64,000 nucleotides of DNA from Malacoraja senta (lineage: Eukaryota): the NCBI GenBank assembly GCA_038087875.1, contig CM075977.1, forward strand, positions 362,638,001 to 362,702,000, written 5' to 3'. Positions 6,961 to 56,999 of this stretch are shown one piece after another; positions within the stretch are counted from its first letter, which is position 1, and every line of letters begins with the position of its first letter. The notes under the pieces are model-generated. The model was not told the origin of the DNA. It worked only from the letters and a program-made list of their open reading frames with translations, and did not search any database. The translations under genes were made by a program, and so were the position numbers.

Positions 6961-7479
6961 TCAGATATACATATTACAACCTCATGTGAATACGGAGAGA
7001 GCTGATTAGTGTTGATCATAGGATAGTAAAGAGTATATTATAGAACAGAATAGTAGTAGGAGTACAGTGATAGTGTAGAATATAATAGAGCAGAATAGTG
7101 TAATGGGAAAGGGATAGTATTGCAGAACTACAGTGAATGTATGGGGAAGCATTAGTACATGAGTGGTAACTTGCTTTGTCCCAAGTTTTTCAGGAATTGT
7201 AGGTTATAGGTTAGACTATGGAAAGGGATGAAAGAAAGGGCAACAACACCAATGGAGGGAATTTTCGCCCACGAAAACTCGGGAGGTGAAGACTCATCAG
7301 ACGGAAATTGTGAAGCTATGCCTACAAAAACTCGGGAAGCTTGACAAGATTCTGGGAAGAAACATCATCATCTTGTTGTTGTTAATAGATGGAGAATGTA
7401 ATAGACACACATATGCATATCTGGTTTTCTGATTATCTGACTATTTAATTATCATAAATGATGGTTTATCATATATGAT

Positions 7480-8265
7480 AAAAGGAAGGAATGTTAATTC
7501 TGGCCAAATTGGAGAGGCCAGGACACTAAAATTGAGTAAAGGCTTCTGGGCTGCTAGGCTATTTGGTCAATTTAAATGTGCCTTCTGCAGAAAGAGGACA
7601 AGCTTCAGAATGGTGCCAGTTTGTCTAGAGCCTAAATAAGAGCTGCAGGAAGAGAATGGTAACATCTGCAGATCCTGACAATTAGGTGCAAATTGCATAG
7701 AATGGATTGGATGAATGCAAACCAGACATACACATTGTATATAATGTTGTAAAGCTTTGCTTTGCTAGATGTTGATTGGATTAAGTATTGAGCGTTGTCT
7801 GGGTTTCTTGAATATCAAGGCACATGTTGCGATGTTTGTTTCCACTTTGGAAGCACTGTTTCAACACATTGTATTAGTTACTGTATTATTGGGTTGGGGA
7901 AATGTCTATCATATACTGTATTAATCAATATCTGTTGGACTGTATAGAGACTGTATAGAGACCACCCCTATGTGGTTCGTCCCCTCAAGGTTCGGGGACC
8001 TATAAAAGACCGCTCCCACGAGGTCCTGTGTCGATCTTCTGGGTGAATGCTTAGGACTGCGTGACCCTCTGGAGTGTCTCTACTTGAACGAGGCTAAAGA
8101 GGGCTTGATCAGGCACATATGAGGATCAAACCCGCGGTGGTTAGGTATAGTAGAGGAACTGTAATTGTGTTTTGTCAAAATATAGTTTAGATGCGCAAGT
8201 GCTTGACTCAGTCATTTTTGACTGAAACTAGACTGGGGGGCAGCTTAGAACAAGCTATTTAAACA
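7480..8265 (+). promoter_or_regulatory. PPT (7480-7491) and 3' LTR (7492-8265) of ERV-A
   Basis: AAAAGGAAGGAA then TGTTAA...TTTAAACA; TATAAAA at 8001; the 3' half is homologous to the ERV-B LTRs. Confidence 0.88.
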
Positions 8266-12130: not shown

Positions 12131-12854
12131 TGTTAATATTGGCTAAATCCCTGCACTTGTCAGAATTGCTTAACCTTTGTCAGCTGAACTTTACCAGCTT
12201 TGATTGGCACCAGCCAGTCTAGGCTTGGTATGCAGGATGGTGAGGGGTCCAGGTGTTCTCCCCGTTTCTCTTAAATTGATAACATGTATAGCAGTTTTGC
12301 AAACGAGCCTTAAATGCATCATTTCGATTGGATCGCTGCAATAGCATTGTAAATAGTATAAATAATGTTGCAAGACAGCCATCCTGTTAATTGATGATTG
12401 GTCAAACATTTGAGCCTTGGAGAAACTGTTTGACTCTCAGGGCACGTTTCGATGTTTGTTCTTCTTTGCTTCCTTCTAGTGCTTTCTTTCTTATACAATG
12501 TATTAGCCACTGTATTATTGGGTTAGGGAAATGTCTGTAATTGGATTGTGAAGAGACCACCCCCATGTGGTTTGGCCCCTCGAGGTCTCTGGACCTACAA
12601 AAGTCTGCTGCCACGAGGTCCTGCGTCGATCTTCTGAGAGAGCGCTTGGGACTGCGTGACCTTCTGGAGTGTCTCTGAGCGAGACCTAGAGGGCTTGATC
12701 AGGCAGATACGAGGATCGAACCCTAGGTGGTTAGGTACAGTATTTGGAACTGTAATTGTGTTTTGTTAAAATAATGTTTAGATGTGTACGTGCTTGACTC
12801 AGTGATTTTTGACTGAGAGTAGACGGGGGGGAAACTTAGAACGAGCAATTTACA
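12131..12854 (+). promoter_or_regulatory. 5' LTR of ERV-B
   Basis: TGTTAATA...AATTTACA; homologous to 25686-26315; TATA box mutated to TACAAAA (12596). Confidence 0.95.
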
Positions 12855-12855
12855 T

Positions 12856-12873
12856 TGGGGGCTCGTCCGGGAT
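12856..12873 (+). promoter_or_regulatory. Primer-binding site, tRNA-Pro
   Basis: TGGGGGCTCGTCCGGGAT, the 18-nt tRNA-Pro PBS as in MLV, one nt after the LTR end. Confidence 0.97.
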
Positions 12874-14712
12874 CTCAACAGACCGTCAAACACAAGTTTG
12901 CGATCACAGGGGTTGAGCTGTTTCGATTGCGAGTGCAGAAATCGGAACCAATGTGCGGTTTTCGCATTGGTTTTCGGCACCGTTAGTCAGAGCGGATCGA
13001 TCATTCGCGGCCTTGGGAAAGGGTCTAATTGAGATCATTAGATCTGAGTCTAGCAAGCACGGGAGGGTGGTTAGCACTCCTTTGAGTTTGGAACCCATAA
13101 AACAGGGCATAGAGTGGCCCAAAATTTGGTCATAGTTGGCAGACTGCAGCAGCTTTAAAAAGAGCCTGACGCGCTTCATTTGGCGAGGGGTGGCCCAAGG
13201 TTAGATTTGGTATCCAATTGGAGGGGTATTGAAACACCTGTCTGACCTACGTATTTATCTTTCTTTGCCGTGAGCGCAGATTGGAAAATTGCGCTCTGAA
13301 AATCAACATCGAGAACTGCCAGAGCGAAGAGGCAAGGCGCTGAACCCTCAGTGCCCAGCAGAGAGGGGTGTCTCCGTGAAGATACCTGAGCCCCCCACTG
13401 AAGTGACAGACGAGGAATCTCATAAAGGTACTGGGCTCGGTGATCAGGGTATAGATTGGCTGGGAATACTCTAGTCCATTCGAGAATTTAATTGGGCAAT
13501 TTTAGTTTAATTAGCGAGCCCGCATATGTGGAGTGGTACGCACCAAAACTGGGAGTTCGAGAACGAGTCTAGATTTGCCGAATTAAATGTCCAAATACAG
13601 AATTTCACATTGAAGTTCTGCCCGTAAGGTAGAATTCGAATTCTTGTAGATAGAACTTCAGAGTTGGTGCATGTCCGTGATCGATTCCGAATAGCGGGTG
13701 AGCAACAGTGAATAGTACCCCTCTGATCGATTGTTGATTAGTACCTGATAGCGAAGAGTACCTGAGAGACGGGAACCGGTTTACTTGGTGAAAAATAATC
13801 CGAATGCGAAGGGTACCCCTAATTCTGTAGAACTTATAGAGGAGTGATAGAGGTCCCCCTATAGAAGTCCAGTCTTAGCGTGAGGATAGTAACATTCCGG
13901 AGGAAAAGTAGTCATTTAAGGAGTAGTACCCCTCAGCAAAGAGTAACCAAGGAAGGGGAAAATCTTCGGTATCGGAGGGAGAGGTTCACTGATTGATAAC
14001 AGTGTGACGCGGCATTGAGATCGAGTGTTTGTATACTGTGTGCTTGTGCTTTAAATCATTTTTGTAAATTGTAAAAATCTAGCTTTTTGTATTGTTATCG
14101 GATCCGAATTATGTAAATATTCTGTGTATGTAAATAAATTTAGAGTGTATTAAGATTTAGAAGTTAAGATTTGGAGTGTGTTAAGTTGGCGGACTGCTAT
14201 TTGTGTTGCTGCTTGTGTGAGTGTTTACGGATTTAGATACTTGAAGTAAAAGTGTGCTTGAGTTAAATATTTGTAATTGCTTACATTGTAGTATTGTGAG
14301 AATCTGAGTCATGGTATTTCGATCAGGGATTGTACTCTTTCGATCGCTGTGTTGAGGGAGGAGTCGTACCGCTGACCGATCGTGCCATGAGGAGGATTTA
14401 TTAGAGTGTGATTTACAGTCGTATTAAGTGGATCTTTGAGATTTATGCAGGAGTGTGGTTAGGTATACTTCTAATAAGTGGAATAATTTATTTTCTGTGT
14501 TCAATTTTGCTCACGTGTTTGGAGTTCATTTGCATGTGTTAGATTAAGGTGGGGGATAGGAAACGGGCTGCGAGAACATGTGTGATTGTGATTGGTTGTT
14601 TCATTGAGCATTTTGATTTGAATATTGTTTAAAACGACTGGTAATTTTGAAATTAGAAAGGGAAAAATTAAGAGGTGTGAGTAGCTTTAGAGTTGCTTCC
14701 ATATCCAATAGA

Positions 14713-19600: not shown

Positions 19601-20512
19601 AAAATTACAATCCTTTGTTCAAAAGGTAAGCAATAATTGTCTAGTCTGCCAGTAATACAATCCAGGGAAAGGAATAGAATGTGAAGGAGGGAAAACACCG
19701 TTACCTATGGGTCCTTTTGAGACATTGCAAATGGACTATATTGAATTAGAAAGATGCCAAGGATATAAATACGTTCTTGTCATAGTCGATGTATTCAGCC
19801 GGTGGATCGAAACATACCCAACCCTTGACAATATAGTGACTACTGTTGTCAAGGTGCTAATGAGATTAATATGTCCCTAGATTCGGCATTCCCATTTGAC
19901 TTAGCTCAGATAACAGTCCACACTTTATTGGACAAATCAATAAAGAATTTTGTGAACAGCTGGGGATTCAGCAGCAATTACACTGTGCTTATCGACCACA
20001 GGCTGCTGGACTTGTAGAAAGGGCAAACCAGACCCTTAAAACTAAATTAGCCAAATTAAAGGCGGGGACTGGACTTGGATGGATTAAATTACTCCCAACA
20101 GCCCTATTTCAGATGAGAGTCACGCAGGAAAATCTAGATTAAGCCCAGCTGAAATTATTTATGGTAGACCCTTAAAAAACCCTCGGAACCAGAATGCAAT
20201 GAAACTAGTTAATTTCCACCATATGACTGCAGAGATGACCGACTATATCTTAGCATTAACAAGAGCTTTAAGGCATTTACATTGTAGAGTGAGAGCAGCC
20301 TATCAGGATATGCCTCATTATTAATTCCCATTAAAGTAAAACCTGGAGACTATGTCTGAGTGAAGAATTGAGTAAGGAAAGGTTCAGAAGTCCGTTGGGA
20401 AGGACCATACCAAGTTCTTTTAATAACTCCGACAGCAGTAAAAGTAGAGGGAAGAAATGCCTAGGTGCATCTCTATCTTTGTAAAAGCATTAGTGAAGGT
20501 ATCAGTAGTTAA
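16652..20512 (+). pseudogene. pol: ERV-B pro-pol: protease, 2H-like insert, RT, RNase H, integrase (disrupted)
   Basis: FLVDTGA; NTPILAVPKP, DLQHAFFS, LPQGF, QYVDD (about 17980); YVDGS; HYATH..CLVC; QMDYIEL, SSDNS, GLVERAN; WEGPYQVLL. Confidence 0.95.
17014..17340 (+). other. 2H phosphoesterase (CNPase/LigT-like) domain remnant between PR and RT
   Basis: L(D)ITLAY at 17059-17079, EGKEGAAEY, then LHITRKV..AKDLGRMVRKA at 17241-17310; reconstruction needs two frameshifts. Confidence 0.7.
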
Positions 20513-20552
20513 CTTGTTTTCTCCCAGGTTTTCTTAAGAATTCTCCACTCTA

Positions 20553-23500
20553 CCAGAAGAATTTACTTGTTTATTAGATTATAATATTAAAACCAATTGT
20601 AAGAACTTATCCTATTAACAACTTAATAAGTTATGCATGTTAGATTAGAATACTAACAAAAACAAAAATAAAAAATAACGAACTAACATACTAATATGAA
20701 TTTTTAATAAATTGAAACCTTATCTATAAGTGGGAGGAGGGGATGAGAAACGAGCACCTGGCTTAGGCCCAGGGGCACGTCCCGTTAACCCCTTCAACCA
20801 ACAGTTGATTCTTATTGAAGTCAAAAGTATCGGTTTAATAAATAGTAGTTAAAATTGCGATATATATATGATATGTTATAATGAAATATATAGGGTAAAA
20901 TTGTATTTATATATCTGAATGTGAGGCCACGTTTTAATATTTTAATATGTTATGATTAACCAAGAGAGCGGAGCTATTTGTTTAACAACACAATGGAAGT
21001 CAAAACAAGGTTTTTTCCCACCTACAGGTGGGACACTCGCTACAGTGCCGACTATATCAGACACTGTATTTTCACTTTTTTCGTTTTTTTTTTATTACCA
21101 CATAAAATCACATGTTTGTGTTTTGTGTTTAGTGATGAGCGTAAAATGGATATACCAACAAAACTTAAAAATTCAAAAGTTCCCCCAATACCCAAAGACC
21201 TGGGATATGGATGCACCACAAGATTTAAAGGTACTATAATTATACAAAATGCATGACACCAAACAAAAGAACCTAGGAGGAATCTCATTTTGTAGTTGGA
21301 ATATAAGAGGTATTAACAAACCTATTAAAAGGGGTAAGATTCTAACTCAGCTGAAACTGTACAACTCCGACATTATCTTCTTACAAGAAACACACTTAAA
21401 ATCTCAGGATCAAGTTAGGTTGAGGGCGAAACGGATAGGTCAAACATACCATTCTTCATTCACTTCGAAATCTAGAGGCACATCAATCATTATAAGAAAA
21501 GGTATACCATTTAAAGCAAAGAATATCATAACAGATATAGAAGGGAGATACTTAATAGTTAATGGAGAAATCCATGATACTCCACTTACCTTGGTAAATA
21601 TATATGCCCCTAACTTTGACAACCCCCACTTTTTCAATAAAATTTTCAACATAATTGCAGAGTTTAACTATCAAAATGTTATAATAGGAGGAGACTTTAA
21701 CTGTGTTTTAGATCCGTACTTAGATAAATCAAGCCAAAAACAGAGGGGGAATATGAAATCGAAAACCGGGGAACTTCTCAATAAACAATACTAATATAGC
21801 AGATGTTTGGAGAATTGTTAATCCAACTGGCAGGGAATACTCGTTTTATTCAATGGTACATAAGACACTCACGTATAGACTACTTCCTGCTGGATACAAA
21901 ATTAATCCCTCAAACATCAAACCCAACATACCACACAAATTCGATTTCAGACCATTCTCCACTAACTTTCTTTTTAAAACTGGAAGGAATGTTTAAGAAT
22001 AAATCGTTTTGGAGATTTAATTCTCAAATTCTAAAAGATCCACAAGCGAGTATATATTTAAAAGAACAAATGGTGGCCTTTTTTCAAATAAATGATACTC
22101 CAGATATATCGTCTACTGTATTATGGGAATCTTTTAAAGCATACATTAGGGGTATTATAATTTCATATCAAGCTTTTCAAAATAAAAAGAATAAGAATGA
22201 ACAAAGACAGTTAGAAGAACTTATTAGACAAATGGATATAGATAATGCTAAAGATCCATCAATAGATAAACATAATAAAATAATAATTTTGAAATTTAAA
22301 TTAAATAAATTATTAGCTGCCAAACTTATAAGACTTTTTCAAATTAGAAAACAAGAGCACTTTGAATTTGGGGATAAACCGCATAAACTTTTGGCCCGCC
22401 AGCTAAAAAAACGAGAAAAGGAACATACTATACCAAAGATTAAATCAGATAAAGGGGAATTATTAACAACACCGAAGGATATTAATAAAAGATTTGCGCA
22501 ATTTTATGAGAATTTGTATACATCTAAAACGACAATTGATTCCAATAATATCACAACGTTTTGGATAATTGTAATCTTCCAAAGTTAGAGCTGAAGGAAC
22601 AAGAGGAATTGGGTGCACAAATTTCAATTAAGGAATTAGAAGATACAATAAACTCATTAAAGAATGGAAAAACACCAGGCCCTGATGGATTTACTAATGA
22701 ATTTTATAAAATCTTTTATGATAAAATAATACCAAGATTACAAAAAATGTACCAATATGCTTTTAAAAAACAAATACTTCCTGATACATTAGCGGAATCA
22801 ACGATTACACTAATACCTAAGAAAGACAAAGATATAGAAGAACCGGGTTCATATAGAGCTATAGCATTGTTAAACACAGATCAAAAAATATTAGCGAAAA
22901 CATTAGCTAGAAGATTAATAAATACATTAGTAAATTAATTAACCCAGATCAGACGGGGTTTATCCCTAAGCTATACTCATCCAATAATATGAGACATTTA
23001 CTCAACATAATGCACTCACACAAATCTGAAGATCAAGAATTATCAATTATTTCGCTGGAAAAAGCATTTGATCAAGTAGAATGGAATTATATGGATAAAG
23101 TATTACAAAAATTCCAACTGGGAGAGAATTTTATTCTATGGATCAAGTTACTATATAATAAACCTACAGCTAGAATACTAACTAATAACATATTATCCTC
23201 GAAATTCCATCTATCAAGGGGAAATAGACAAGAATGCTCATTATCACCACAGCTGTTTGCTCTCATTATTGAACCGCTAGCAGAAAATATTAGAATACAC
23301 CCTGATATCCATGGATATAATACTAAAGACTCATATAATAAAATATCTTTATACACGGATGATATATTACTGTACATTACAAAACCTCAAATCACTATAC
23401 CAATTATATTAAATTTAATTGAAGACTTTGGATCTTTTTCTGGATATAGAATAAATTGGAATAAAAGTGAAATTATGTCAATAAAACCGAAAGATTCAAC

Positions 23501-25417
23501 ACATCTTTTAAAATTCCCTTTTAAAATAGCTACAGAAAAATTTAAATACTTGGGAATCGAAATTACTAGAACATATCAAGGTATGTTTAAGGCAAATTTT
23601 GAACCCCTACTTAATAAATTAAACACACTAATTAAATTCTGGAAAACGCTCCCGATGTCTTTAATATGCCGAATAAATGCAATAAAAATGATCTTTCTAC
23701 CACAAATTTTATACCTATTTCAATCGATTCCTATATACTTACCAAAGAAGTTTTAAAAAAAACTCGACTCAGATATCACTAATTTTATATGGGACTATAA
23801 ATCACATAGAATACAAAAAACTCATCTGAATAAACCTAAAGTATTAGGGGGTTTAGCACTACCTAATTTTATGTATTATTATTGGTCAGTAAATATTAAA
23901 AATATGATTCAACTGATGGATAACTCCGCACAGCAAGTGGACTGGATTGTAATGGAGAAAGAGGATTGCTCCTCTGGAAACATTGGAGCGATCCTCCTCT
24001 CTCCAATGAAACTGAATAATATAAATTATAATAAGAACCCAATTATTCATCGTACAATCCGAATTTGGAAACAAATAAAACAAAATTTAAAATTAAGAAA
24101 TTTATCACTTTTATTACCTATAGTTAATAACCCTTCGTTTAGTCCTTCTATTATAGATAAAGCTTATACACAATGGGATAGACTAGGAATTAAAACGCTC
24201 GGTGACTTGTATGAAACTGGAAAATTGCTTTCATTTCAACAATTACAAATAAAATATAAACTCGGAAATAATCAATATTTTAAATATTTTCAAATATGCG
24301 ACTATTTGAAAAAATATACAAAATATCATTATAATAACCCAGCAGATGTATTGGATGAGGCAATGCAGATAAAAGCTGAATCAGCAAACCTAATATCATA
24401 TTTGTATAATATTATCTTAAATGTACAAATACCATCTACGGAGGGTATCAGAAGAGACTGGGAACAAGAGTTAGCTATTAAAATTTCAAAGGAAAGTTGG
24501 AATGAACATTTATTAAAAGTGCATAAATGTTCGATTAATGTAAGACACACTTTAATACAATTTAAAATTTTACATAGATTATATTATTCGAAAACTAAAA
24601 TTCATAAAATTTTCCCAAATGTATCATCTATTTGTGATAAATGTCAATCCCAAGAAGCTACTATAGCGCACTCATTCGTTTTCTGTACAAAAATTCAAAA
24701 ATTTTGGAATGAAATTTTCGAAATCTTTACAAAATTATTTAAAATAAGACTGATACCCAAAGCAGAATGGATTATCTTCGGAATAACGGAAGATGGTGCA
24801 GAACTAAATGTGTTTCAAAAGAAACTAACAGACTATGGGTTAATAACTGGAAAAAAGCTAATTCTAAAATTTTGGAAGAAGGCTCCAATACCAACTATAA
24901 ACATGTGGATTTCAAATATGTTCGAAACATTACACCTAGAAGAGATAAGACTCCTCCTAGCAGGTAAACCAGATCACTTCCACCTGACGTGGTCTGCATT
25001 TATAGAATTATTACAAATATAGGGTGCAAAGGTACCTTAAAAAAAAATTGAGGTCAGGTAAGGGGGGATGATAGTTGAAGAGTTGGTATGTCCCATTTGC
25101 GTAATACTCATAAAAATATTTGTTTCTCTCTTTTTCCTCTTTCTCTTTCTCTTTCTTTTCTAGGGTCTATTTCTTAACTCTTTTTCTTTTGTTTTTAATT
25201 TTGTTCTTATAGGGTCTTCGTCCTTTTTTGTTGTCACATTTTCTACACTCTCACTTTTTCCTTCACTTTCTTCTTTCTTTCAATCTTTTCCTTTTCTAGT
25301 GTAAAAAACAAATGGAGTACATTTATTGTAAGAAGACATAAGTGACGAGTACTAATGTATGTGGTTTTAATGTAATGTACTTCTAATAAATAGAAAATTA
25401 AAAAATATATTAAAAAA
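20553..25417 (+). mobile_element. L1 LINE, 5'-truncated upstream of ORF2, inserted in ERV-B
   Basis: 17-bp TSD AAGAATTCTCCACTCTA at 20536-20552 and 25418-25434; TT/AAGA nick site; AATAAA and A-rich tail. Confidence 0.96.
21249..25022 (+). pseudogene. L1 ORF2 (APE endonuclease, RT, CCHC), frameshifted
   Basis: SWNIRG, LQETH, NIYAPN, GGDFN, SRIDY, SDHSP; PGPDGF, EKAFD, ISLYTDD, KYLG; CDKC..H..C. Confidence 0.95.
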
Positions 25418-25685
25418 AAGAATTCTCCACTCTATTATGAATCAAGGAACAATGGACTATCAGGATTGATGGATGGGAATTCGAGCCCACAAAAACTCGG
25501 AAGGCGAAGACTTATCAGAAAGAAATCATGGAGCTACGCCCACGAAAACTCGGGAAGCTCAATGAAATTCTGAGAAGCTACATCAACATCTTCTTGTTAG
25601 AACATTGTTAAAGTAGAGCAGTCATCATTGTATTCTGGAGTTATCAGTTATGATGAGGGTTATCATGAATGATAAAATGGGGGAA

Positions 25686-26315
25686 TGTTAATACTTGCCA
25701 AATTAAAGACACCATAAAATGGAGGATCTTTGCACTTGTCAGAATTGCAAACAAACCTTAAATGCATCATTTTGATTGGTTTGCTGCAAAAGCATTGTAA
25801 GTAGTATAAATAATGTTGCAAGACGGTCATCCTGTTAGTCGGTGATTGGTTGAACTGTTGAGCCTTGGAGAAACTGTTTGAATCTCAGGGAACATGTTTC
25901 AATGTTTGTTCTTGTTTGCTTCCTTCTAGAGCTTTCTTTCTTATACAATGTATTATTGGGTTAGGGAAATGTCTGTCATGTATGGGGTTAATCGATATCT
26001 GTAATTGGATTGTAAAGATACCACCCCCACGTGGTTCAGCTCCTCGAGGTCTGGAGACCTATAAAAGTCCGCTGCCATGAGGGCGATCTTCTGGGAGAGC
26101 GCTTGGGACTGCGTGACCTTCTGGAGTGTATCTGTTTGAGTGAGGCGTAGAGGGCTTGATCAGGCAGATACGAGGATCAAACCCATGGTGTTTAGGTACA
26201 GTAGTTGGAACTGTAATTGTGCTTTGTCAAAATAATGTTTAGATGTGCAAGTGCTTGCCTCAGTGATTTTTGACTGAAACTAGACTGGAGGGAAGCTTTG
26301 AACGAGCAATTTACA
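25686..26315 (+). promoter_or_regulatory. 3' LTR of ERV-B
   Basis: Follows the PPT; TGTTAATA...AATTTACA; TATAAAA at 26060. Confidence 0.95.
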
Positions 26316-37855: not shown

Positions 37856-40800
37856 AGAAACATAGAAACATAGAAATTAGGTGCAGGAGTAGGCCATTCG
37901 GCCCTTCGAGCCTGCACCGCCATTCAATATGATCATGGCTGATCATCCAACTCAGTATCCCGTACCTGCCTTCTCTCCATACCCTCTGATCCCTTTAGCC
38001 ATAAGGGCCACATCTAACTCCCTCTTAAATATAGCCAATGAACTGGCCTCGACTACCCTCTGTGGCAGACAGTTCCAGAGATTCACCACTCTCTGTGTGA
38101 AAAAAGTTCTTCTCATCTCGGTTTTAAAGGATTTCCCCCTTATCCTTAAGCTGTGACCCCTTGTCCTGGACTTCCCCAACATCGGGAGCAATCTTCCTGC
38201 ATCTAGCCTGTCCAACCCCTTAAGAATTTTGTAAGTTTCTATAAGATCCCCTCTCAATCTCCTAAATTCTAGAGAGTATAAACCAAGTCTATCCAGTCGT
38301 TCTTCATAAGACAGTCCTGACATCCCAGGAATCAGTCTGGTGAACCTTCTCTGCACTCCCTCTATGGCAATAATGTCCTTCCTCAGATTTGGAGACCAAA
38401 ACTGTACGCAATACTCCAGGTGTGGTCTCACCAAGACCCTGTACAACTGCAGTAGAACCTCCCTGCTCCTATACTCAAATCCTTTTGCTATGAAAGCTAA
38501 CATACCATTCGCTTTCTTCACTGCCTGCTGCACCTGCATGCCTACTTTCAATGACTGGTGTACCATGACACCCAGGTCTCGCTGCATCTCCCCTTTTCCT
38601 AGTCGGCCACCATTTAGATAATAGTCTGCTTTCCTGTTTTTGCCACCAAAATGGATAACCTCACATTTATCCACATTATACTGCATCTGCCAAACATTTG
38701 CCCACTCACCCAGCCTATCCAAGTCACCTTGCAGTCTCCTAGCATCCTCTTCACAGCTAACACTGCCCCCCAGCTTAGTGTCATCCGCAAACTTGGAGAT
38801 ATTGCCTTCAATTCCCTCATCCAGGTCATTAATATATATTGTAAATAGCTGGGGTCCCAGCACTGAGCCTTGCGGTACCCCACTAGTCACTGCCTGCCAT
38901 TGTGAAAAGGACCCGTTTACTCCTACTCTTTGCTTCCTGTTTGCCAGCCAGTTCTCTATCCACATCAATACTGAACCCCCAATGCCATGTGCTTTAAGTT
39001 TGTATACTAATCTCTTATGTGGGACCTTGTCGAAAGCCTTCTGGAAGTCCAGATACACCACATCCACTGGTTCTCCCCTATCCACGCTACTAGTTACATC
39101 CTCGAAAAATTCTATAAGATTCGTCAGACATGATTTACCTTTCGTAAATCCATGCTGACTTTGTCCAATGATTTCACCACTTTCCAAATGTGCTGCTATC
39201 CCATCTTTAATAACTGACTCTAGCAGTTTCCCCACTACCGATGTTAGACTAACTGGTCTGTAATTCCCCGTTTTCTCTCTCCCTCCCTTCTTAAAAAGTG
39301 GGGTTACGTTTGCTACCCGCCAATCCTCAGGAACTACTCCAGAATCTAAAGAGTTTTGAAAGATTATTACTAATGCATCCACTATTTCTGGAGCTACTTC
39401 CTTAAGTACTCTGGGATGCAGCCTATCTGGCCCTGGGGATTTATCGGCCTTTAATCCATTCAATTTACCCAAAACCACTTCCCGACTAACCTGGATTTCA
39501 CTCAATTCCTCCAACTCCTTTGACCCGCGGTCCCCTGCTATTTCCGGCAGATTATTTATGTCTTCCTTAGTGAAGACGGAACCAAAGTAGTTATTCAATT
39601 GGTCCACCATATCCTTGTTCCCCATGATCAACTCACCTGTTTCTGACTGCAAGGGACCTACATTTGTTTTAACTAATCTCTTTCTTTTTACATATCTATA
39701 AAAACTTTTGCAGTCAGTTTTTATGTTCCCTGCCAGTTTTCTTTCATAATCTATTTTTCCTTTCCTAATTACGCCCTTTGTCCTCCTCTGCTGATCTCTG
39801 AATTTCTCCCAGTCCTCCGGTATGCTGCTTTTTCTGGCTAATTTGTACGCATCATCCTTGGCTTTGATACCATCCCTGATTTCCCTTGTTATCCACGGAT
39901 GCACTACCTTCCCTGATTTATTCTTTTGCCAAATTGGGATGAACAATTTTTGTAGTTCATCCATGCAGTCTTTAAATGTCTTCCATTGCATGTCCACCGT
40001 CAACCCTTTTAGAATTAATTGCCAGTCAATCTTGGCCAATTCACGTCTCATACCCTCAAAGTTACCTTTCTTTAAGTTCAGAACCATTGTTTCTGAATTA
40101 ACAATGTCACTCTCCATCCTAATGAAGAACTCAACCATATTATGGTCACTCTTGCCCAAGGGGGCACGTACAACAAGACTGCTAACTAACCCTTCCTCAT
40201 TACTCAATACCCAGTATAAAATAGCCTGCTCTCTCGTTGGTTCCTCTACATGTTGATTTAGATAACTATCCCGCATACATTCCAAGAAATCTTCTTCCTC
40301 AGCACCCCTGCCAATTTGATTCACCCAATCAATATGTAGATTGAAGTCACCTATTATAACTGTTTTGCCTTTGTCGCACGCATTTCTAATTTCCTGTTTG
40401 ATACCATCTCCAACTTCACTACTACTGTTAGGTGGCCTGTACACAACACCCACCAGCGTTTTCTGCCCCTTAGTGTTTCGCAGCTCTACCCATACCGATT
40501 CCACATCCTTGAACCTAATGTCCTCCCTTTCCATTGCGTTAATGTCCTCTCTAATCAGCAACGCTACCCCACCTCCTTTTACTTTCTCTCTATCCCTCCT
40601 GAATATTGAATATCCCTGGATGTTCAGCTCCCAGCCTTGGTCACCCTGGAGCCATGTCTCCGTGATCCCAACTATATCATAGTCATTAATAGCTATCTGC
40701 ACATTCAACTCATCCACCTTATTACGAATGCTCCTTGCATTGAGACACAAAGCCTTCAGGCTTGTTTTTACAACACTCTTACCCCTTATACAATTATGTT

Positions 40801-41310
40801 GAAAAGTGGCCCTTTTTGATTTTTGCCCTAGTTTTGTCTGTCTTCCACTTTTACTTTTCACCTTGCTACCTATTGCTTCTACCCTCATTTTACACTCCTC
40901 TGTCTCTACGCTCACACATTTAAGAAACCCTTTCCCTTTAACTCCATCCTCCACTATCCCATTCGACACCCCACCTCCCTTATTCAGTTTAAAACCACCC
41001 GTGTAGCAGTGGCAAACCTGCCTGCCAGAATGCTTGTCCCACACCTGTTAAGATGCAATCCGTCCCTTTTGTACAGTTCCCCCTTACCCCAAAACAGATC
41101 CCAGTGATCTAAGAATCTAAATCCGTGCCCCGTGCACCAGTTCCTGAGCCACACGTTCAGGTCCCGTATCTCCCTGTTCCTGCTCTCGCCAGCATGAGGA
41201 ACTGGAAGCAAACCGGAGATAACAACCCTGGAGGTCCTGCTTTTCAGCATTTTTCCGAGCTCTCTAAAGTCACGCTGCAGAATATTCATCCCCTTCTTTC
41301 CGACATCGTT
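37856..41310 (-). mobile_element. Young HER1/CR1 LINE, truncated within ORF1
   Basis: (CTATGTTT)n tail; TGTACT on both flanks (37850-37855, 41311-41316). Confidence 0.95.
37952..41044 (-). CDS. HER1/CR1 ORF2: APE endonuclease and reverse transcriptase; uninterrupted frame (first ATG at 40888, 978 aa)
   Basis: CLNARS, ITETW, VYRPP, GDFN, SDH; PGPD, YRPVSLTS, DFQKAFD, GVPQGSVLGP, KFADD, RDLGV. Confidence 0.93.
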   Translation of the reverse strand: MWDKHSGRQVCHCYTGGFKLNKGGGVSNGIVEDGVKGKGFLKCVSVETEECKMRVEAIGSKVKSKSGRQTKLGQKSKRATFQHNCIRGKSVVKTSLKALCLNARSIRNKVDELNVQIAINDYDIVGITETWLQGDQGWELNIQGYSIFRRDREKVKGGGVALLIREDINAMEREDIRFKDVESVWVELRNTKGQKTLVGVVYRPPNSSSEVGDGIKQEIRNACDKGKTVIIGDFNLHIDWVNQIGRGAEEEDFLECMRDSYLNQHVEEPTREQAILYWVLSNEEGLVSSLVVRAPLGKSDHNMVEFFIRMESDIVNSETMVLNLKKGNFEGMRRELAKIDWQLILKGLTVDMQWKTFKDCMDELQKLFIPIWQKNKSGKVVHPWITREIRDGIKAKDDAYKLARKSSIPEDWEKFRDQQRRTKGVIRKGKIDYERKLAGNIKTDCKSFYRYVKRKRLVKTNVGPLQSETGELIMGNKDMVDQLNNYFGSVFTKEDINNLPEIAGDRGSKELEELSEIQVSREVVLGKLNGLKADKSPGPDRLHPRVLKEVAPEIVDALVIIFQNSLDSGVVPEDWRVANVTPLFKKGGREKTGNYRPVSLTSVVGKLLESVIKDGIAAHLESGEIIGQSQHGFTKGKSCLTNLIEFFEDVTSSVDRGEPVDVVYLDFQKAFDKVPHKRLVYKLKAHGIGGSVLMWIENWLANRKQRVGVNGSFSQWQAVTSGVPQGSVLGPQLFTIYINDLDEGIEGNISKFADDTKLGGSVSCEEDARRLQGDLDRLGEWANVWQMQYNVDKCEVIHFGGKNRKADYYLNGGRLGKGEMQRDLGVMVHQSLKVGMQVQQAVKKANGMLAFIAKGFEYRSREVLLQLYRVLVRPHLEYCVQFWSPNLRKDIIAIEGVQRRFTRLIPGMSGLSYEERLDRLGLYSLEFRRLRGDLIETYKILKGLDRLDAGRLLPMLGKSRTRGHSLRIRGKSFKTEMRRTFFTQRVVNLWNCLPQRVVEASSLAIFKRELDVALMAKGIRGYGEKAGTGY

Positions 41311-46430: not shown

Positions 46431-49224
46431 TCAAAAAACTCAATAAAGTTCAATTAGGACCACAGATGCAGTCCATGAGATGTTTGCATCATCTCCCTGA
46501 GACCTTGCGTGTTTCTGCCCAAAGCCTAGTTTCAAAACTCCAAAGACATGCTGATAGACTTATTTGCACTGTGAATTAACTGTTGGTGTACGTATATGCT
46601 AAAACTAAATAAAAGGTAATTGGCAGGCATATGAGTGGGCATAAGTTGCAATGGGTAGGAAAAAACTGCAGATGCTGGTTTAAATCGAAGGTACAGTAGA
46701 TACAAAATGCTGGAGTAACTCAGCGGGACAGGCAGCATCTCTGGAGAATAAGTTGCAATGGTACAGGGAAAGTTTTTTGGTTGTCTGTGATTTTAAAATA
46801 GTTGTAAATCTAGGCAAGTGGAACTAGTGTAGATGGGACATGTTGGTCAGTGTGGGCAAGTTGGGACAAAGGGCCTGTTTCTACACTGTAGGACTCTAGT
46901 ACTCTTGACTCTATGACCTGAAGATTGTGAAAATTCAGAGTTCACTAAAGGATGAAATTGATAGGAAAGAAACCATAGAATGCAGAGTAATAACAGAGGT
47001 AGAAACAGACTGTCTGAGTTTCTCTGTGTAAAAAGGAAAATATTTACTTAAGTTGATGTGGTTCCCTTGCAAATGTAGACTGGAAATATTATGGTGGGGA
47101 ATAAAATTAAAATGACAGTGTAGGCTATGAGCAGGATTCAGAATATCTTCGGAGATATAGACACACTAAATGTTTTTTATTTTGCATGAAGAGAGATTGT
47201 GGATCAGGACATTCCACTCTGGAGTCTCTAAGAATAAGTGGCCTCACTGAGATGTATGTTCTTATGCTATTTGACAGTGTAGATGTGGAGTTCATGTTTC
47301 TCAATAACTCCGACAATTTCTTTATCTGACCACATTAACAACCAAATCCTGAGCTCCCTTCCTAATTGTCTTAGTCTTGACCATTCTTTTCATTGATTTT
47401 ACTCCACTGCCTCAAGATTCCTCAGAACTTCCTACCTTACAATCCCATCCCATTTGTTCAACCGCACAATCTAATCACAACCCCATCACCTACAATTCAG
47501 CCCCAACATGACTTGCAGTTACTCCTTATGGATCCCAAATTGTAAGTCGCCTTCTGATGCTTGAGCCAACCCACTCACTCCCTGATGAGTCCCTTTCCAC
47601 AGGGCTCACTGGAATGAACTCTGTGCTCTACTTTATGTGATTTCTTTCATGGACTCTACAATTTTAGAGCAAGTGGATAGACTTTCTTTCATGGTGAAAA
47701 ACCTGTTCAGTAATTCATGTTGCTGTGGGCTGCCGCAATCTGACTGCTATCCAAGCAAGGTTTTCAAAAAGAAATCCTTGGCAACAATTCTTTTTAATTC
47801 TCTTTTGATTTTTCTTCCAAGCTACATGATTCAGGGTCCAGGAGTTAAATCTGGAGATTCAAGGGCAACCCTGAAGGACTGGAAGTTTTATTGCAGAGAT
47901 TCATATGTCAACAGTGCACATCACAGAGCATTAAACACAACACCAGGGTGAATTTTGAACTTGACTGCTGAGATGAATACAGGCAGTAATGGACCAGCTG
48001 ATTTACACCATGGAAAACGGAGGTCTAGATTTAAATGACTAATGGGTATTCAGTTGGAAACAACGATGACAAATTAATTTCTCACCCATCCATGGCAGAG
48101 TAAAATTTCATGTCAGATTTTAGGTCCCATTTAAATTGGCTGGAGGTGATAAATATCACTGCCAAGGCGACGAGGTAGGGTGCACCTGTCAGCATCTGCT
48201 AAGTCAGAGGATTGGCATTCCTACGGAGATATTATGAAGGGAAATTAGTCTTGTGCCTAATTTACAAAAAAAAGTTACAAAGTGCTGGAGTAACTCAATG
48301 GGTTAGGCAGCATCTCTGGAGAACATGGATAGATGACAATTGACAATCTGGTCAATAGGGGCAAGAATCTCCACCAATGCATATGTTTTCCAATTTGGGC
48401 TCATTTGGTTTAGTTTAGTTTAGTTTAGTTTAGTTTAATGTCACATGTACAGAGGTGAAAACCTTTTGTTGCGTGCTAACCAGTCAGCGGGAAGCCAATA
48501 ATCCCCAGTCAACGGAAAGAAATGGCAGAACAGTTAAACGAGTACTTTGGTTCTGTCTTCACTAAGGAAGACATAAACAATCTCCCGGAAATACTAGGGG
48601 ACCGAGGATCTAGTGGGAGGGAGGAACGGAAGTGAATGCACATTTGTCAGAAAATGGTGTTAGATAAACTGTTGGGACTGAAGGCAGATAAACCCCCAGG
48701 GCCAGGTTGTCTGCATCCCAGAGTACTCAAGGAGGTGGCTCTAGAAATCGTGGATGCATTGGTGATCATTTTCCAAAGTTCTCTCGACTCTGGATCAGTT
48801 TCTGTGGACTGGAGGGTAGCCAATGTAACTCCACTTTTTAAGAGAGGCGGGGGAGAGAAAACGAGGAATTGTAGACCAGTTAGCCTTACATCGGTAGTGG
48901 GGAAGATGCTGGAGTCAATTACTAAAGATGTTATAGCAGTTAATTTGGAAAGCAGTGACGGGATCGGTTGTAGCAGCACCTGCTGGTGCCTGTGAGTAGC
49001 CGAACCCTGCGGTCGGCTACCTCAGTCACGTGACCATGGGGAGGGGTTTGTTTTCACGCGCTTTTCTGGGCAAGCCCATTCATTTGTTAACCACCGTTGT
49101 GGTAGTAATACTGTATTTAGCTGCCACAAGATTACCATTGTTTTCACCACTTTCGCAATGAAGCTCGTTTGGAAATCAACCTATCGTCTTGACTCGCTAA
49201 ACTGTTGACCCCAACGCGCCCAAT

Positions 49225-49935
49225 ATGCAGGACGCCGCTGTTCCCGATGCCGTTCCCGATGCCCATCAGAGTGCCGTCAGTCTCAAGCTGCCGGTGTTCT
49301 GGCCTGAACAGCATCAAGTGTGGTTCGCGCACGTGGAGACGCAGTTCCACATGCGCCATATCGTAGTTGACGAAACCAAATATTTCCATGTTGTAGGTGC
49401 CCTTATGAAGGAGCCAGCGTCCCATCTGCTGCCCTTCCTACCAAACTCACCCGCGACCGCCAAATACGAGGGCCTCAAAGCCCTACTCCTGCAGACTTTC
49501 GGGGTCAGCCGCCGGGACTGCGCCGCCCGCCTTCTGCACATGGATGGCTTGGGAGATCGCAAGCCGTCGGTTCTCATGGCTGACATGCTCGCCTTAATGG
49601 ATGGCCACCGCCCATGCCTTATGTTCGAGCAGGCATTCTTAGAACAGATGCCGGACGACGTCCGCCTCATGCTCGCAGGTGCGGACTTCGCCGATCCTCT
49701 GCAGTTCGCCGAACAGGCCGACGAAACACCAAGATGGCGGCACCATTAACCGTGTGTCTGCACCAGCGCGCCATTCTCCTCAGCAAGACCGTGACGAGGC
49801 CCCGCCCACGAGTTCCAGTGCGTAGCCACAGTAGCGATCCGGGACTCGTGGTAGCGATCCGGGACTCGTTGGTGTTTCTATCATCTCCGATGAGGGGCGG
49901 AGTCCCGATGCTGCTGCCAGCCTTGTGCATTTCAG
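49225..49935 (+). pseudogene. gag: Gypsy gag with CHCC zinc motif
   Basis: AVSLKLPVFWPE..WF..VETQF, LGDRKPS; CFYH-x9-C-x3-C at 49873-49926. Confidence 0.88.
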
Positions 49936-49959
49936 GGATATGCCTCAGCCGATCATCTG

Positions 49960-52900
49960 TAGAGGCGATCACGATCGGCCTGAACACCGCCTTTACGTCC
50001 GTGACCGCCACTCCGGCCGCCGTTTTCTTGTGGACTTCGGTGCAATTGTCAGCATCCTCCCTCCTACCGGGCACTACACTTGTGCTGGTAAGCGTGGCCC
50101 CATGCTCACAGCCATCAACGGGAGCACCATCCGAACGTACGGTACGCGGACCCTTTCACTTACCTTCGACTCCCGCCCGTACGACATCGTGGCAGACATC
50201 GCTCAGCCGCTCCTGGCGGCTGATTTCTTGCGTGCCTTCTCCCTCGTCGTGGATGTTCAGGGCGGCTGCATGACTCCGCGATCGGCCATCGGCTCCACCG
50301 CGCCGCTGCCCCCGCCCCCACCCAACTCACAGCTCAGCGTCGTCGCCGAGGTCAACGGTCTTTACGCCGCCCTGCTCTTGGATTTTCCTGAGCTCCTCGC
50401 ACCCCGTTTCAGCAGGGGGTTGTGCACCATATCCCCACTGAGGGTCCTCCGGTGCATGCCCGGGCGCGTCGCCTCCTGCCGGACAAGCTGTGCATCGCCC
50501 GGGATGAGTTTCAACTAATGGAGGACATGAGGATTGTTCGGTGGTCCGACAGCCGATGAGCCTCCCTGCTACATATGGTCCCGAAAGCTTCGGGGGGGGG
50601 GGTGGAGACCATGCGGGGATTACCAGCGTCTGAACACAATGACCACGGTGGACCGCCACCCGGTGCCCCATATTCAGGACTTCTCCGCACACCTCGAGGG
50701 CACCGCTTTCTTTTCCAAGGTTGACCTCGTCCGAGATTACAACCAAATCCCCTTGCAGGACGACGACTTTCCAAAAACCGCCATGATCACCCCGTTCAGC
50801 CTGTCTGAGTGGCTCTGAATGCCTTTCGGGTTATAGAAAGCCGCGCAGGCATTCCAGCGGCTGATGGGCCAGGTCGGGCGGGGTCTACCTTTCATGTTTA
50901 TGTATTTGGACGACATTCTGGTCACCAGCACCTCGCAAGAGGGGCACATCACCCACCTCCAGACTTTGTTCCAGTGCCTCCGTGAACACGGCCTCGTCAT
51001 TAACCCTGTGAAGTGCCAGTTCGGCCTCCGCTCCATCTCCTTCCTGAGGCACAACGTTACTCCCCAGGGTGCTACCCCACTCCCCGCTAAGGTCGAAGCC
51101 ATCCGGCAGTTCCCCCGGCCGCTCACCATGAAGGGGCTACAGGAGTTTGTTGGCATGGTGAACTTTTATCACCATTTCGTGCCGGCAGCTGCTAACATCA
51201 TGCGCCTCCTGTTCCGGTGTCTGGCAGGTAAGCAGCGGGCCTCGCGTGGTCCGCGGAGGCGGACATGGCTTTCGAGGGTGCCAAGGCAGCCCTGGCCAAA
51301 GCTACCATGTTGGTACACCCACGTGCTTCCGCCCCTACTGCGCTCACCGTAGACGCCTCGGATGCTGCTGTGGGTGGTGTTCTGGAGCAGCTCGTCGACG
51401 GCCGCTAGCAGCCGTTAGCCTTTTTCAGTCGCCAGCTGCGTGCGCCAGAATGCAACCACAGCGCTTTCGACCGCGAGCTTCTAGCGCTGTATCTCGCCGT
51501 CAGATATTTCAGATATTTCCTCGAGGGCCAGGCATTCAATGCTTTCATGCACCACAAGCCCCTCATTTTCACCCTGGGCAAGATCGCTGATCCGTGGTCC
51601 GCCCGTTAGCAACGGCACCTTGCATATATCTCAGAATTTACAACTGACATCTGCCATGTCATGGGTAAACTCAACGTCGTTGCCGTCGCCTTGTCCGGAC
51701 CCGCCATTACCTCCATTTCGGCCCTCGACCATGCGTCGGCTATAGCCAGCTGGCTGCAGCGCAGCGTGCAGACGCGGGTATGGAAGCCTACCGCACAGCT
51801 GTTTCTGGCCTTCGGCTGGCCGAAGTGCATTTCGGAGCGGCAGGCAACATGGTCTTATGCGACGTCCCCAGGGGTCGTGCCCATCCCATCGTCCCTGTCA
51901 GATGGCGACGACGGGTTTTTGATGCTGTCCATGGCCTGGCTCACCCGTCCATACGGGCAACGTCCGCACTGGTGGCGGCCAAGTTCATCTGGCATGGGCT
52001 GCATAAGCAGGTGGCTGCCTGGGCCCGCGCATGTGTCCCATGCCAGTGGCACGTGCGTCCCCCGGTGCAGGAGTTTGCGCTTCCTGCGGGCAGATTCCTG
52101 CACGTACATGTCGACCTGGTGGGCCCGTAGCCGCAGTCCCGCGGCGCTACGCACCTGCTCACCATAGTGGACCATTTCACGCGGTGGCCAGAGGCGATCC
52201 CACTTACTGATACGTCCGCCCTGGCTTCCGCTCGGGCTATGGCGGCCCACTGGATTGCCCGGGTCGGGGTGCCTTCTTTTTTAAATTTTTTAAACAAATT
52301 TTATTTATTAGAAGTACATTACATTACAACCACATACATTAGTACTCGTCACATATATCTTTTTACAATTAATGTACTCCCTTTGTTTTTTACACTAATA
52401 AAGGGAAAGGATGAGATTGAGAGAAAGAAGAAAATGAAGGAAAAGGTGAAAGTGTAAAAAACGTGACAACAAGAAAGAACGAAGACCCTATAAGAACGAA
52501 ATTAAAAACAAAAGAAAAAGAGTTAAGAAATAGACCCTAAAAAAGAAGAAGAAAGAGAAAGAGGGAAAATAGAAAAACAAATAGTTTTGTAAGCATCACG
52601 CAAATGGGACATACCAACTCTCCAACTTTCATCCCCCCTTACCTGACCTCAGGTTTTTTTAAGGTACTTTTGCACCCTATATTTGTAATAATTCTATAAA
52701 TGCAGACCACGTCAGGTGGAAGTGATCTGGTTTACCTGCCAGGAGGAGTCTTATCTCTTCTAGGTGTAATGTTTCGAACATATTTGAAATCCACATGTTT
52801 ATAGTTGGTATTGGAGCCTTTTTCCAAAATTTTAGGATTAGTTTTTTCCAGTTATTAACCCATAGTCTATTAGTTTCTTTTGGAACACATTTAGTTCTGG

Positions 52901-54660
52901 ACTATCTTCCGTTATTCCAAAGATAATCCATTCTGCTTTGGGTATCAGTTTTATTTTAAATAATTTTGTAAAGATTTCAAAAATTTCAATCCAAAATGTT
53001 TGAATTTTTGCACAGAATACAAATGAGTGCGCTATAGTAGCTTCTTGCGATTGCCATTTATCACAGATGGATGATACATTTGGGAAAATTTTATGGATTT
53101 TCGTTTTGGAATAATATAATCTATGTAAAATTTTTAATTGTATTAAAGTGTGTCTTACATTAATTGAACATTTATGCACGTTTAATAAGTGTTCATTCCA
53201 CCTTTCCTTTGAAATTTTAATAGCTAGTTCTTGTTCCCAGTCTCTTCTGATACCCTCCGTAGATGGTATTTCTACATTTAAGATAATATTATACAAATAT
53301 GATATTAAGTTTGCTGATTCAGCTTTTATCTGCATTGCATCATCCAATACATCTGCTGGGCTATTATAATGATCTTGTGTATATGTTTTCAAATAGTCGC
53401 ATATTTGAAAATATTTAAAATATTGATTATTTCCGAGTTTAGATTTTATTTGTAATTGTTGAAATGATAGTAATTTTCCAGTTTCATACAGGTCACCGAA
53501 TGTTTTAATTCCTAGTCTATCCCAGTGTGTGAAAGATTTATCTATAATAGAGGGATTAAACGAAGGATTATTAACTATGGGAGATAAAAGTGATAAATTT
53601 CTTAATTTTAAATTTTGTTTTATTTGTTTCCAAATTCTGACTGTGCTATGTATAATTGGGTTCTTATTATAATTTATGTTATTCAGTTTCATTGGTGAGA
53701 GGAGGATCACTCCAATGTTTCCAGAGGAGCAATCCTCTCTCTCCATTACAATCCAGTCCACTTGCTGGGCAGAGTTATCCATCAGTTGAATCATATTTTT
53801 AATATTTACTGACCAATAATAATACATGAAATTAGGTAGTGCTAAGCCCCCTAATACTTTAGGTTTGTTCAAGTGAGTTCTTTGTATTCTATGTGATTTA
53901 TAGTCCCATATAAAATTAGTGATATCTGAGTCCAATTAAAAAAAAAACTTCTTTGGTAGGTATATAGGAATCGATTGAAATAGGTATAAAATTTGTGGTA
54001 GAAAGATCAGGGTCGGGGTGCCTTCTGACATTTCCACTGACCCGGGGGCCCAGTTCACATCTTCCTTGTGGTCTGCCCTAGCCCTCGCTACGCCGCCCGG
54101 TTACACCTTACGACCGCCTACCACCCACAGGCCTAGTGGCTCGTCGAGCAGTTCCATCGGCACCTCAATTCGGCGCTGAAGGCTCGGCTCACAGGCCTGG
54201 ATTGGGCGGACCAACTGCCATGAGTCCTCCTTGGCATACGCACCGCCCCCATGGAAGATTTGGCTGCTTCCTCGGCCGAGCTCGTGTATGACTCGATTTT
54301 CTCCCTACCGCCTCTGGCCAGGCCGCATCAGCCCAGGTGTTGCTAGCTGGCCTTCGGGAGAGGGTGAGCACGTTGACCCCTGTTCCCACTTCTAGGCACA
54401 GTTCGTCCGCGGTGCATGTGCCCGTGGTGTTGCAAAAATGTGCTTATGTTTTAATTCGCAGGGACGCTCACCGCTCGCCATTGCAACGAGTATACGAGGG
54501 GCCATTCCGGGTGCTGTGAGCCGGGGTCTACACGTTAACTGTGGACGTGGGAGGCCGGGAGTAGTTTGTTTCCGTCGGCCGTCTCAAACACACCCCATGT
54601 GGATGTGGACAGCCCGGTGGTTGTTGCTTCGCCGCGACGTAGAGGTTGTCCACTGGCCGT
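49960..54660 (+). pseudogene. pol: Gypsy pol (PR-RT-RH-IN), disrupted and interrupted by an L1
   Basis: FLVD(F)GA, WRPCGDYQRLN, YLDDILV, VDASD..VGGVL, HGLAHP..CVPCQ, HVDLVGP, YEGPFRVL. Confidence 0.9.
52278..54009 (-). mobile_element. L1 3' fragment (ORF2 C-terminus and UTR) inserted in the Gypsy integrase
   Basis: 17-bp TSD GGGTCGGGGTGCCTTCT at 52261-52277 and 54010-54026; protein highly similar to ORF 23871-25022. Confidence 0.95.
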
Positions 54661-56317: not shown

Positions 56318-56999
56318 TGTAAATTCCGGTTCTAGACTTACCCCCTTAGTCTGGTTTACTCAAACACTAAGTAAAACTCTGGTTCCAAAACCTTACTTTA
56401 TTGAAGAACAAACTGCAGGAATGGTTGCTGATCCACCCACGCAAGACAATACTATCTCGTGCATACAGAACAGAAGTCACATTCAACCGACACACCCTCT
56501 TGTAACCTTCCAAACTAAGGGTGTGACATTACTTGGGGGAGGAAACCCTACAAACCAATAACACATATTAATTATAACAGTACATAATTGACAGTTCTCT
56601 AACCCAATAATATAATCTTATATACATTGTATTCGAAAGAAGCTTCTAGAAGGAAGCAAACATAGCAACATGTGCCCTGGGATTCTGACAGTTCCTCCAA
56701 GGCTCAACATTTCAACCACTCAGTAACTATCCAAATAAGACTTTGCAACATTATTTACACTATGTATATCTGGTTTGCATTCACCCAATCAGTTCCATGC
56801 AATTTACACCTTATTGTAAGATTCTGCAATGTCCCATTCTTTTCCTGTAGCTCTTTTCTAGGCCATAGACAAACTGGCACCATTCAGCAGCTTGTCCCAG
56901 TTCTGCAAAAGGCACATTTAACTTGACCAAAATGGCCTAGCAGCACACAATTTACTCAATTTTAATGTCCTGGCTGCTCCAATTTGGCCAGGACTAACA
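56318..56999 (-). mobile_element. Solo LTR (ERV-D) of the same ERV family
   Basis: TGTTAG...AATTTACA on the minus strand; 4-bp TSD GTTC at 56314-56317 and 57000-57003; 5' U3 matches the ERV-A LTR. Confidence 0.9.

Follow-up and report, generated by a model that had tools for sequence, protein, structure and literature searches.

A predicted twin-hairpin RNA module in the env position of an env-less endogenous retrovirus lineage of Malacoraja senta

Three related insertions and their env position

The window, meaning the whole stretch of 64,000 nucleotides (64 kb) of Malacoraja senta DNA analysed here, holds three related endogenous retrovirus (ERV) insertions, A, B and C, and the genome searched for further copies comprises 1.94 Gb. 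In ERV-B, a 5' LTR and primer site are followed by a long leader, by gag and pol and finally by a 3' LTR at 25686-26315, and ERV-C lies on the minus strand, extending from the window end to 60606. The reverse transcriptase (RT) finds its best match among gammaretroviral RTs (E 1e-32), followed by foamy (2e-21) and Ty3 (6e-13) enzymes, and this closeness to gammaretroviral RTs places the lineage, as far as sequence can assign it, among class I (gamma/epsilon-like) ERVs. The lineage is env-less, and the claim that all three insertions lack env holds, as none is found between pol and the polypurine tract in A, B or C. Between the pol stop or acceptor and the polypurine tract lies an element of about 150 nt, carrying a 17-nt motif twice, and the features of this region are as follows.

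7167-7193, plus strand: ERV-A TAAC, pyrimidine tract and two AGs (7184-7185 and 7192-7193), acceptor-like by sequence
7238-7385, ends approximate, plus strand: whole predicted module of ERV-A (5' arm, hairpin 1, hairpin 2 and 3' arm), from folds of natural copies
7257-7295, plus strand: predicted hairpin 1 of ERV-A, with motif 7268-7284 as its tip
7302-7354, plus strand: predicted hairpin 2 of ERV-A, with motif 7321-7337 as its tip and three compensatory pairs in the lower stem
7480-7491, plus strand: polypurine tract of ERV-A, immediately 5' of the LTR start TG
7492-8261, end approximate, plus strand: 3' LTR of ERV-A
12131-12873, plus strand: 5' LTR (12131-12854) and primer-binding site (12856-12873) of ERV-B
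20510-20538, plus strand: pol stop of ERV-B (TAA 20510-20512), overlapping TAAC, pyrimidine tract and AGs
20553-25417, plus strand: LINE insertion in ERV-B, separating acceptor from module, with target-site duplication 20536-20552 / 25418-25434
25475-25513, plus strand: predicted hairpin 1 of ERV-B, motif 25486-25502, a decayed copy whose minimum-energy fold lacks hairpin 1
25520-25572, plus strand: predicted hairpin 2 of ERV-B, motif 25539-25555
25674-26315, plus strand: polypurine tract (25674-25685) and 3' LTR of ERV-B
61355-61382, minus strand: pol stop of ERV-C, overlapping TAAC, pyrimidine tract and two AGs
61274-61312, minus strand: predicted hairpin 1 of ERV-C, motif 61301-61285, stem decayed in the window copy
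61215-61267, minus strand: predicted hairpin 2 of ERV-C, motif 61248-61232
60606-61113, minus strand: polypurine tract (61113-61102) and 3' LTR of ERV-C, interrupted at 60606 by another repeat

The primer-binding site of ERV-B is presumably of the tRNA-Pro type. The LINE located between its acceptor and its motifs measures 4.9 kb, with a 17-nt target-site duplication; it bears an endonuclease-RT frame and has a second copy, 93% alike, at 52277-54009 on the minus strand. Another LINE family, with an endonuclease-RT frame open for 1031 codons, occupies 37952-41047 (minus strand), having decayed copies elsewhere in the window, and the broken gag-pol-like frames at 49200-52400 are what we take to be of gypsy type. 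In addition, a lone LTR at 56310-56999 (minus strand) consists of an A-type U3 fused to an unrelated R-U5, and this LTR type flanks module-carrying elements elsewhere in the genome.

All six motif matches described in an earlier note on this DNA were recovered, at 7268 and 7321, 25486 and 25539, and 61301 and 61248 (minus strand), where 0.05 would be expected by chance. Regarding the acceptor proposed in the same note, the TAAC, pyrimidine tract and AG are present, with the TAA being the pol stop in B and C, but the AG singled out there is mostly AAG in A copies; an AG ten bases downstream is better kept, as CAG in 37 of 43 A copies. In a set of 121 copies selected through the module or a single exact motif, 110 retain acceptor-like sequence 80-100 nt upstream, including family A with its dead pol, and the acceptor-to-motif distance is variable (81, 93, 94, 101 and 102 nt), falling in all three phases. 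In the same set, motif 1 lies 181-226 nt 5' of the LTR in 103 copies and farther in five, the LTR start not being found in 13, so that the module has the CTE-like 3' position in genomic RNA, near the polypurine tract. The spacing between the motifs is less rigid than the fixed 53 nt once claimed: it is 53 in 107 of the 121 copies, whereas six older copies have 54, which is divisible by 3. A search for the exact twin motif at spacings of 54-76 gave a single match, this pattern being blind to the older lineage, whose tips differ, and the exact motif had no match among IMG/VR contigs.

Copies, relatives and conservation

Genome searches yielded 655 candidates with the C module and 849 with the A module, the best 40 being scored from each, and the exact motif occurs 343 times in the genome, compared to none for the reversed control. 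When loci were picked by integrase only, which avoids module bias, both motifs were present in 23 of 30 and at least one within 1.5 kb in 27 of 30; the env-less class I lineage thus assigned has hundreds of copies in the genome. The LTR pairs are 88-94% identical in 8 of 20 long loci, and the insertions are therefore old. Family A has no RT and, compared to a B/C copy, shows 72-78% identity over the first 1.7 kb of the leader and 61-65% over gag and the integrase remnant, retaining leader, R-U5 and module despite the loss of RT. From this we infer that family A is a non-autonomous partner of B/C, to which it is joined by intermediate subfamilies. Downstream of the primer site, the leader extends over about 1.7 kb (window 12856-14600; loci L091, L093, L096 and L102) and may contain a large structured packaging region. 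A subfamily with unrelated R-U5 has both motifs in 7 of 25 loci picked by its LTR; the remaining 18 have no motif upstream, and five or six of these have a primer site on their 3' side and are 5' LTRs. Some copies are rearranged: recombinants have breakpoints inside or beside the module (L126, L140 and L144), L141 has lost one unit and is a single-hairpin copy, such single-unit copies amounting to 1 of 61, and L056 carries a third motif within a rearranged LTR.

An older env-less lineage, obtained from lower-scoring integrase matches, carries the module in the equivalent place. Of 20 fetched loci, 11 are env-less, ten of these with motifs, and the other nine belong to an env-bearing sister (TLV_coat, E 2e-9), in which the motif is present at none of the nine. 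The motif spacing of the older lineage is 53 or 54 nt, and position 7 of its motif is C or T, so that the A-U pair closing a putative AAAC tetraloop is broken. In the integrase tree, read with the mis-cut and overlong row L049 disregarded, the sister has a long branch that joins next to the oldest env-less copies, which fits a gain of the module near the time of env loss, their order not being proven by the tree. The sister loci (L247-L255), mostly on unplaced contigs, are 92-99% alike in the LTR region and possess an AT-rich spacer of about 250 nt between pol and env. One env-less relative with a different LTR (L256:1080-1550) keeps the acceptor and hairpin-1-like fragments and has neither motif.

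These relatives bear on the alternative, also raised in the earlier note, that the module is a stub of the env leader. No similarity of the slot to the env of the sister was seen, as comparisons with its env start, SU and TM end, at DNA or peptide level, gave p<0.05 in 3 of 42 tests, within multiple-test chance, and none below 0.03; the sister is distant (branch 0.5), and the result bears only on less-old remnants. Searched as an 'env leader' peptide, the slot gave no frame longer than 158 codons among the best 150 of 915 matches. In env-bearing ERVs found through TLV_coat, the motif (up to 3 mismatches) was present in 0 of 30 loci and 0 of 20 longer loci, three being shared, and these ERVs, with pol only 30-46% identical, are poor outgroups. 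At least two more env-bearing class I ERV families, distant from the env-less lineage, were encountered (L061-L090 and L172-L191).

Regarding sequence conservation, the excess difference of A versus B/C over the within-A level is 0.08 for the 100-nt core, 0.05 for R-U5 and 0.14 for the acceptor, compared to 0.15-0.24 for the flanks of the core, 0.18 for U3 and 0.19 for the integrase remnant. The claim that the block is much better kept than the integrase of ERV-A is borne out by these values. Relative to the LTR, the core stands above U3, as well as above its own flanks, but not above R-U5; it is kept at the level of R-U5, a known cis region, and no better, so that the refuting condition named in the earlier note, conservation no higher than in flanking LTR sequence, holds in half. 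Between B/C and the older lineage, core (0.75) and integrase (0.74) are equal in identity.

Predicted fold and coding potential

The natural copies are predicted to fold as two hairpins with the 17-nt motif at each tip, and the two hairpins probably sit on a basal stem; we infer both the fold and this stem from a structure model that was drawn from the folds of the very copies tested. The 43 A copies are set apart from the 32 B/C copies by 8 of 94 columns, and six of these eight combine into three base pairs of hairpin 2, all in its lower stem (C-G/U-A, A-U/G-C and G-C/A-U; P=1.2e-4 against random columns). One of these swaps is B/C-specific and two are A-side, and the G-U state present in 14 of 43 A copies, together with intermediates, indicates that the pairs were swapped stepwise, in at least two steps, the mismatches between the compensated pairs being left unchanged. 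The older lineage adds swaps from C-G to U-A (5 of 48 rows) and from G-C to A-U (7 of 48 rows). Among variant types at non-CpG pairs, those shared by at least 4 of 98 copies keep pairing in 9 of 13 cases, compared to 9 of 59 for private types (p=2e-4), CpG columns being excluded and nine of 107 copies having been dropped as near-duplicate, truncated or shifted. Moreover, G-U states outnumber their antisense equivalents at three pairs (17:2, 12:1 and 8:0), and the mean folding z of ten copies is -3.4 for the module, -1.3 for its antisense, 0.06 for integrase and -0.4 for U3; a predicted folding of the sense strand is supported. The number of pairs with two-sided change is not above that in shuffles (274 of 500, or 109 of 500 with the older lineage included), and the covariation case consists of few events over related copies, all of them double transitions.

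RNAalifold, applied to 56 copies, recovered hairpin 2 in its lower stem and hairpin 1 at its tip, but missed the lower stem of hairpin 1. The motif tips show no covariation, and the fold of the hairpin 2 tip is ambiguous, with 0.16 for the register proposed earlier and 0.65 for an alternative one. The bulged-A hairpin with an AAAC tetraloop envisaged for the motif is thus not upheld, lacking covariation and having its closing A-U pair broken in 13 of 48 diverse copies; on the model, a conserved loop carried by a C-G-rich helix of ambiguous register would be a better description of the tip. As for the basal stem, an A arm is calculated to pair with A at -15.1 kcal/mol, with B/C at -7.3 and with shuffled sequence at -6.9, and the diverged flanks pair better within A and within B/C than across, which suggests a Y-shaped fold standing on a basal stem. 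For the older lineage, no such advantage of own over foreign flanks is seen, the basal-stem signal being limited to A versus B/C. Conserved secondary structure of a CTE-like kind is therefore found in the lower stems, the tips and basal stem being less certain. Overall, the module is very probably an RNA structure under selection, and the RNA-level, cis-acting role suggested for it gains support from the lower-stem compensations, the sense-strand fold, its retention in the RT-less family and its absence from the env-bearing sister.

A spliced accessory micropeptide had also been proposed; its start, frame and exon phase are not kept across subfamilies. Of 43 A copies, only the one in the window has the CAATGG start, the others mostly having ATG in a different context. 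The CGA>TGA stop reported for B is real but is the majority state, with TGA in 23 of 32 B/C copies, CGA in two and other codons in seven, which makes the 37-aa form of C exceptional. The frame in question possesses an ATG and runs uninterrupted across the two motifs in 97 of 107 younger copies. Within it, each of the three differences between families alters the residue and none falls at a third position; among 12 older copies, 11 lack an in-frame ATG, and a spacing of 54 nt changes the reading frame. Another frame, with a basic and then a hydrophobic stretch, is open for 89 codons in family A only, where 4 of 8 family differences fall on third positions. The conserved ATG falls within a predicted GAUG/CAUC pairing, and the three short frames had no match in Pfam. 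On these sequence comparisons, constraint appears to act at the nucleotide level. No RNA data set was listed among the sequencing runs carrying the sequence. In one poly(A) run from another organism, depth over LTR, module and integrase remnant was low, mainly sense, and similar across the acceptor (4-5 versus 7); no joints into the acceptor were among those listed, at a depth below 10, with references diverged from the reads and a table crowded by another repeat. Taken together, the earlier observation is confirmed in part and its interpretation supported in part.

Known retroviral elements and possible functions

The IAP and MusD families are env-deficient, with the MTE in the env position, and we know of no twin 17-nt tip in the IAP RTE or the MTE. 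Both are transport elements of mouse LTR retrotransposons, and the RTE matches the module in its position, 3' of pol and before the polypurine tract (PMC4383553); they are, however, class II elements of the mouse, longer than the module (412 nt for the MTE of MusD; PMC11379458), and the likeness is one of description. The MPMV/SRV CTE is like the module in its 3' position next to the LTR (PMC12789967), its size of 150-175 nt, its structured nature and its two similar sites (PMC7551171). That CTE, a betaretroviral element, forms a single long stem-loop interrupted by two internal loops, whereas the module, from a class I ERV, is predicted to have two separate hairpins with identical tips. The RSV DR, also repeated and located in the 3' part, acts in cis on export and stability (PMC3856414) as well as on packaging and assembly (PMC3856414, PMC12193657), but it consists of 115-nt whole repeats flanking src, whereas the module repeats only 17-19 nt, 53-54 nt apart, on separate stems.

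The gamma-CTE, CAE and PTE of MLV are cis export elements of a class I retrovirus; they differ in lying in coding regions (pol), and the gamma-CTE holds AAGACA, a site for NXF1, which is absent from the module, where AAGACT stands in A and B/C and GAGACT in most older copies. A CTE or gamma-CTE proper was considered and is ruled out by the predicted two-hairpin fold and by the presence of AAGACT or GAGACT only. Rec/RcRE and Rem/RmRE, whose export proteins derive from the env leader, would match the arrangement of an acceptor with a short basic frame behind it, but no frame is conserved across the module subfamilies. Rfam covariance models gave chance-level matches only (E 0.5-3), no description of the module was found in the literature searched, and the motif itself occurred in none of the papers covered; most subscription papers and repeat databases fell outside this search, and a repeat name may exist. 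We regard the module as a real and undescribed structured RNA element.

Simple retroviruses export unspliced RNA through structured 3' elements that recruit host factors (PMC12789967). We lean, at somewhat better than even confidence, towards a comparable role here, in which the module in the env slot would act in cis on export or post-transcriptionally, in the manner of the CTE, RTE and MTE. Unspliced retroviral RNA needs to leave the nucleus, and the module, probably gained around the time of env loss, would supply this exit in cis, being needed in cis also by the RT-less partner. The two identical protruding tips would form a two-site scaffold, on which each tip probably holds a single protein copy, and the stems would be free to vary provided that pairing persists.

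The same RNA structure could instead serve packaging, dimer formation or intracellular particle assembly, its tips binding the own Gag, a reading that is unlikely yet the main rival. It agrees with the retention of the module by an RT-less partner that must be packaged in trans, with the packaging and assembly effects cited above for the RSV 3' repeats, and with the C at motif position 7 of both tips in the older copies L236, L240, L246 and L262, as expected of a co-evolving, lineage-specific partner, although three other older copies have this C in only one tip. The module lies, however, downstream of the acceptor and so on spliced RNA too, and the loop is not self-complementary; moreover, the 5' leader is long, conserved, already present and the usual place of packaging signals, and was for this reason counted for the export reading. 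An improbable explanation is that the module is a passenger, an old short duplication or env remnant homogenised by template switching between co-packaged RNAs, with the compensations produced by inverted-repeat correction. The recombinants that break in or beside the module imply that exchange may have homogenised it, and the loss of one unit in L141, as well as conservation merely at the R-U5 level, would agree with such an origin; nevertheless, the compensations are stepwise, with G-U intermediates and untouched intervening mismatches, the G-U bias is strand-specific, single-unit copies are rare, and neither similarity to the sister env regions nor a long 'env leader' frame was found.

Control of splicing, where the module would dampen or tune the retained env acceptor just upstream, has little probability in our estimate. 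Cis elements limit splicing in simple retroviruses (PMC12789967), and the acceptor-like sequence persists even in the pol-dead family A, but its distance from the module varies (81-102 nt), and no acceptor joint was among those listed, with sense depth alike on both sides at shallow coverage. Very improbable is the view of the selected unit as a micro-ORF, be it the 30-37 aa peptide or the overlapping frame that is basic and then hydrophobic. The open frame of most younger copies and the third-position differences of the 89-codon frame of A favour it; against these stand the residue-changing family differences, the missing older start codons, the frame shift at 54-nt spacing, the acceptor distances in all three phases, the predicted pairing of the ATG and the lack of a Pfam match.

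A more specific and rather doubtful version of the structural readings is that the twin hairpin is a two-site operator, gained at env loss, for a partner that co-evolves with it (the family's Gag or an RNA-binding protein of the germline); it would direct genomes into intracellular particles and would have licensed the spread of the autonomous and RT-less partners to over a thousand copies. Env-less ERVs are reportedly the high-copy kind. If the operator reading were true, the module would be without a described precedent as an 'env-slot' RNA switch outside mammals and birds, and its fold would differ from those of the CTE, RTE and MTE. In the literature searched, no description was found of how unspliced RNA of class I retroviruses leaves the nucleus in fish or other non-amniotes. 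A compact 150-nt element, with natural compensatory variants over a ladder of subfamilies and a module-free, env-bearing sister, makes the export question testable, and the module would count as one more case in which a 3' RNA element linked to the loss of env arose independently.
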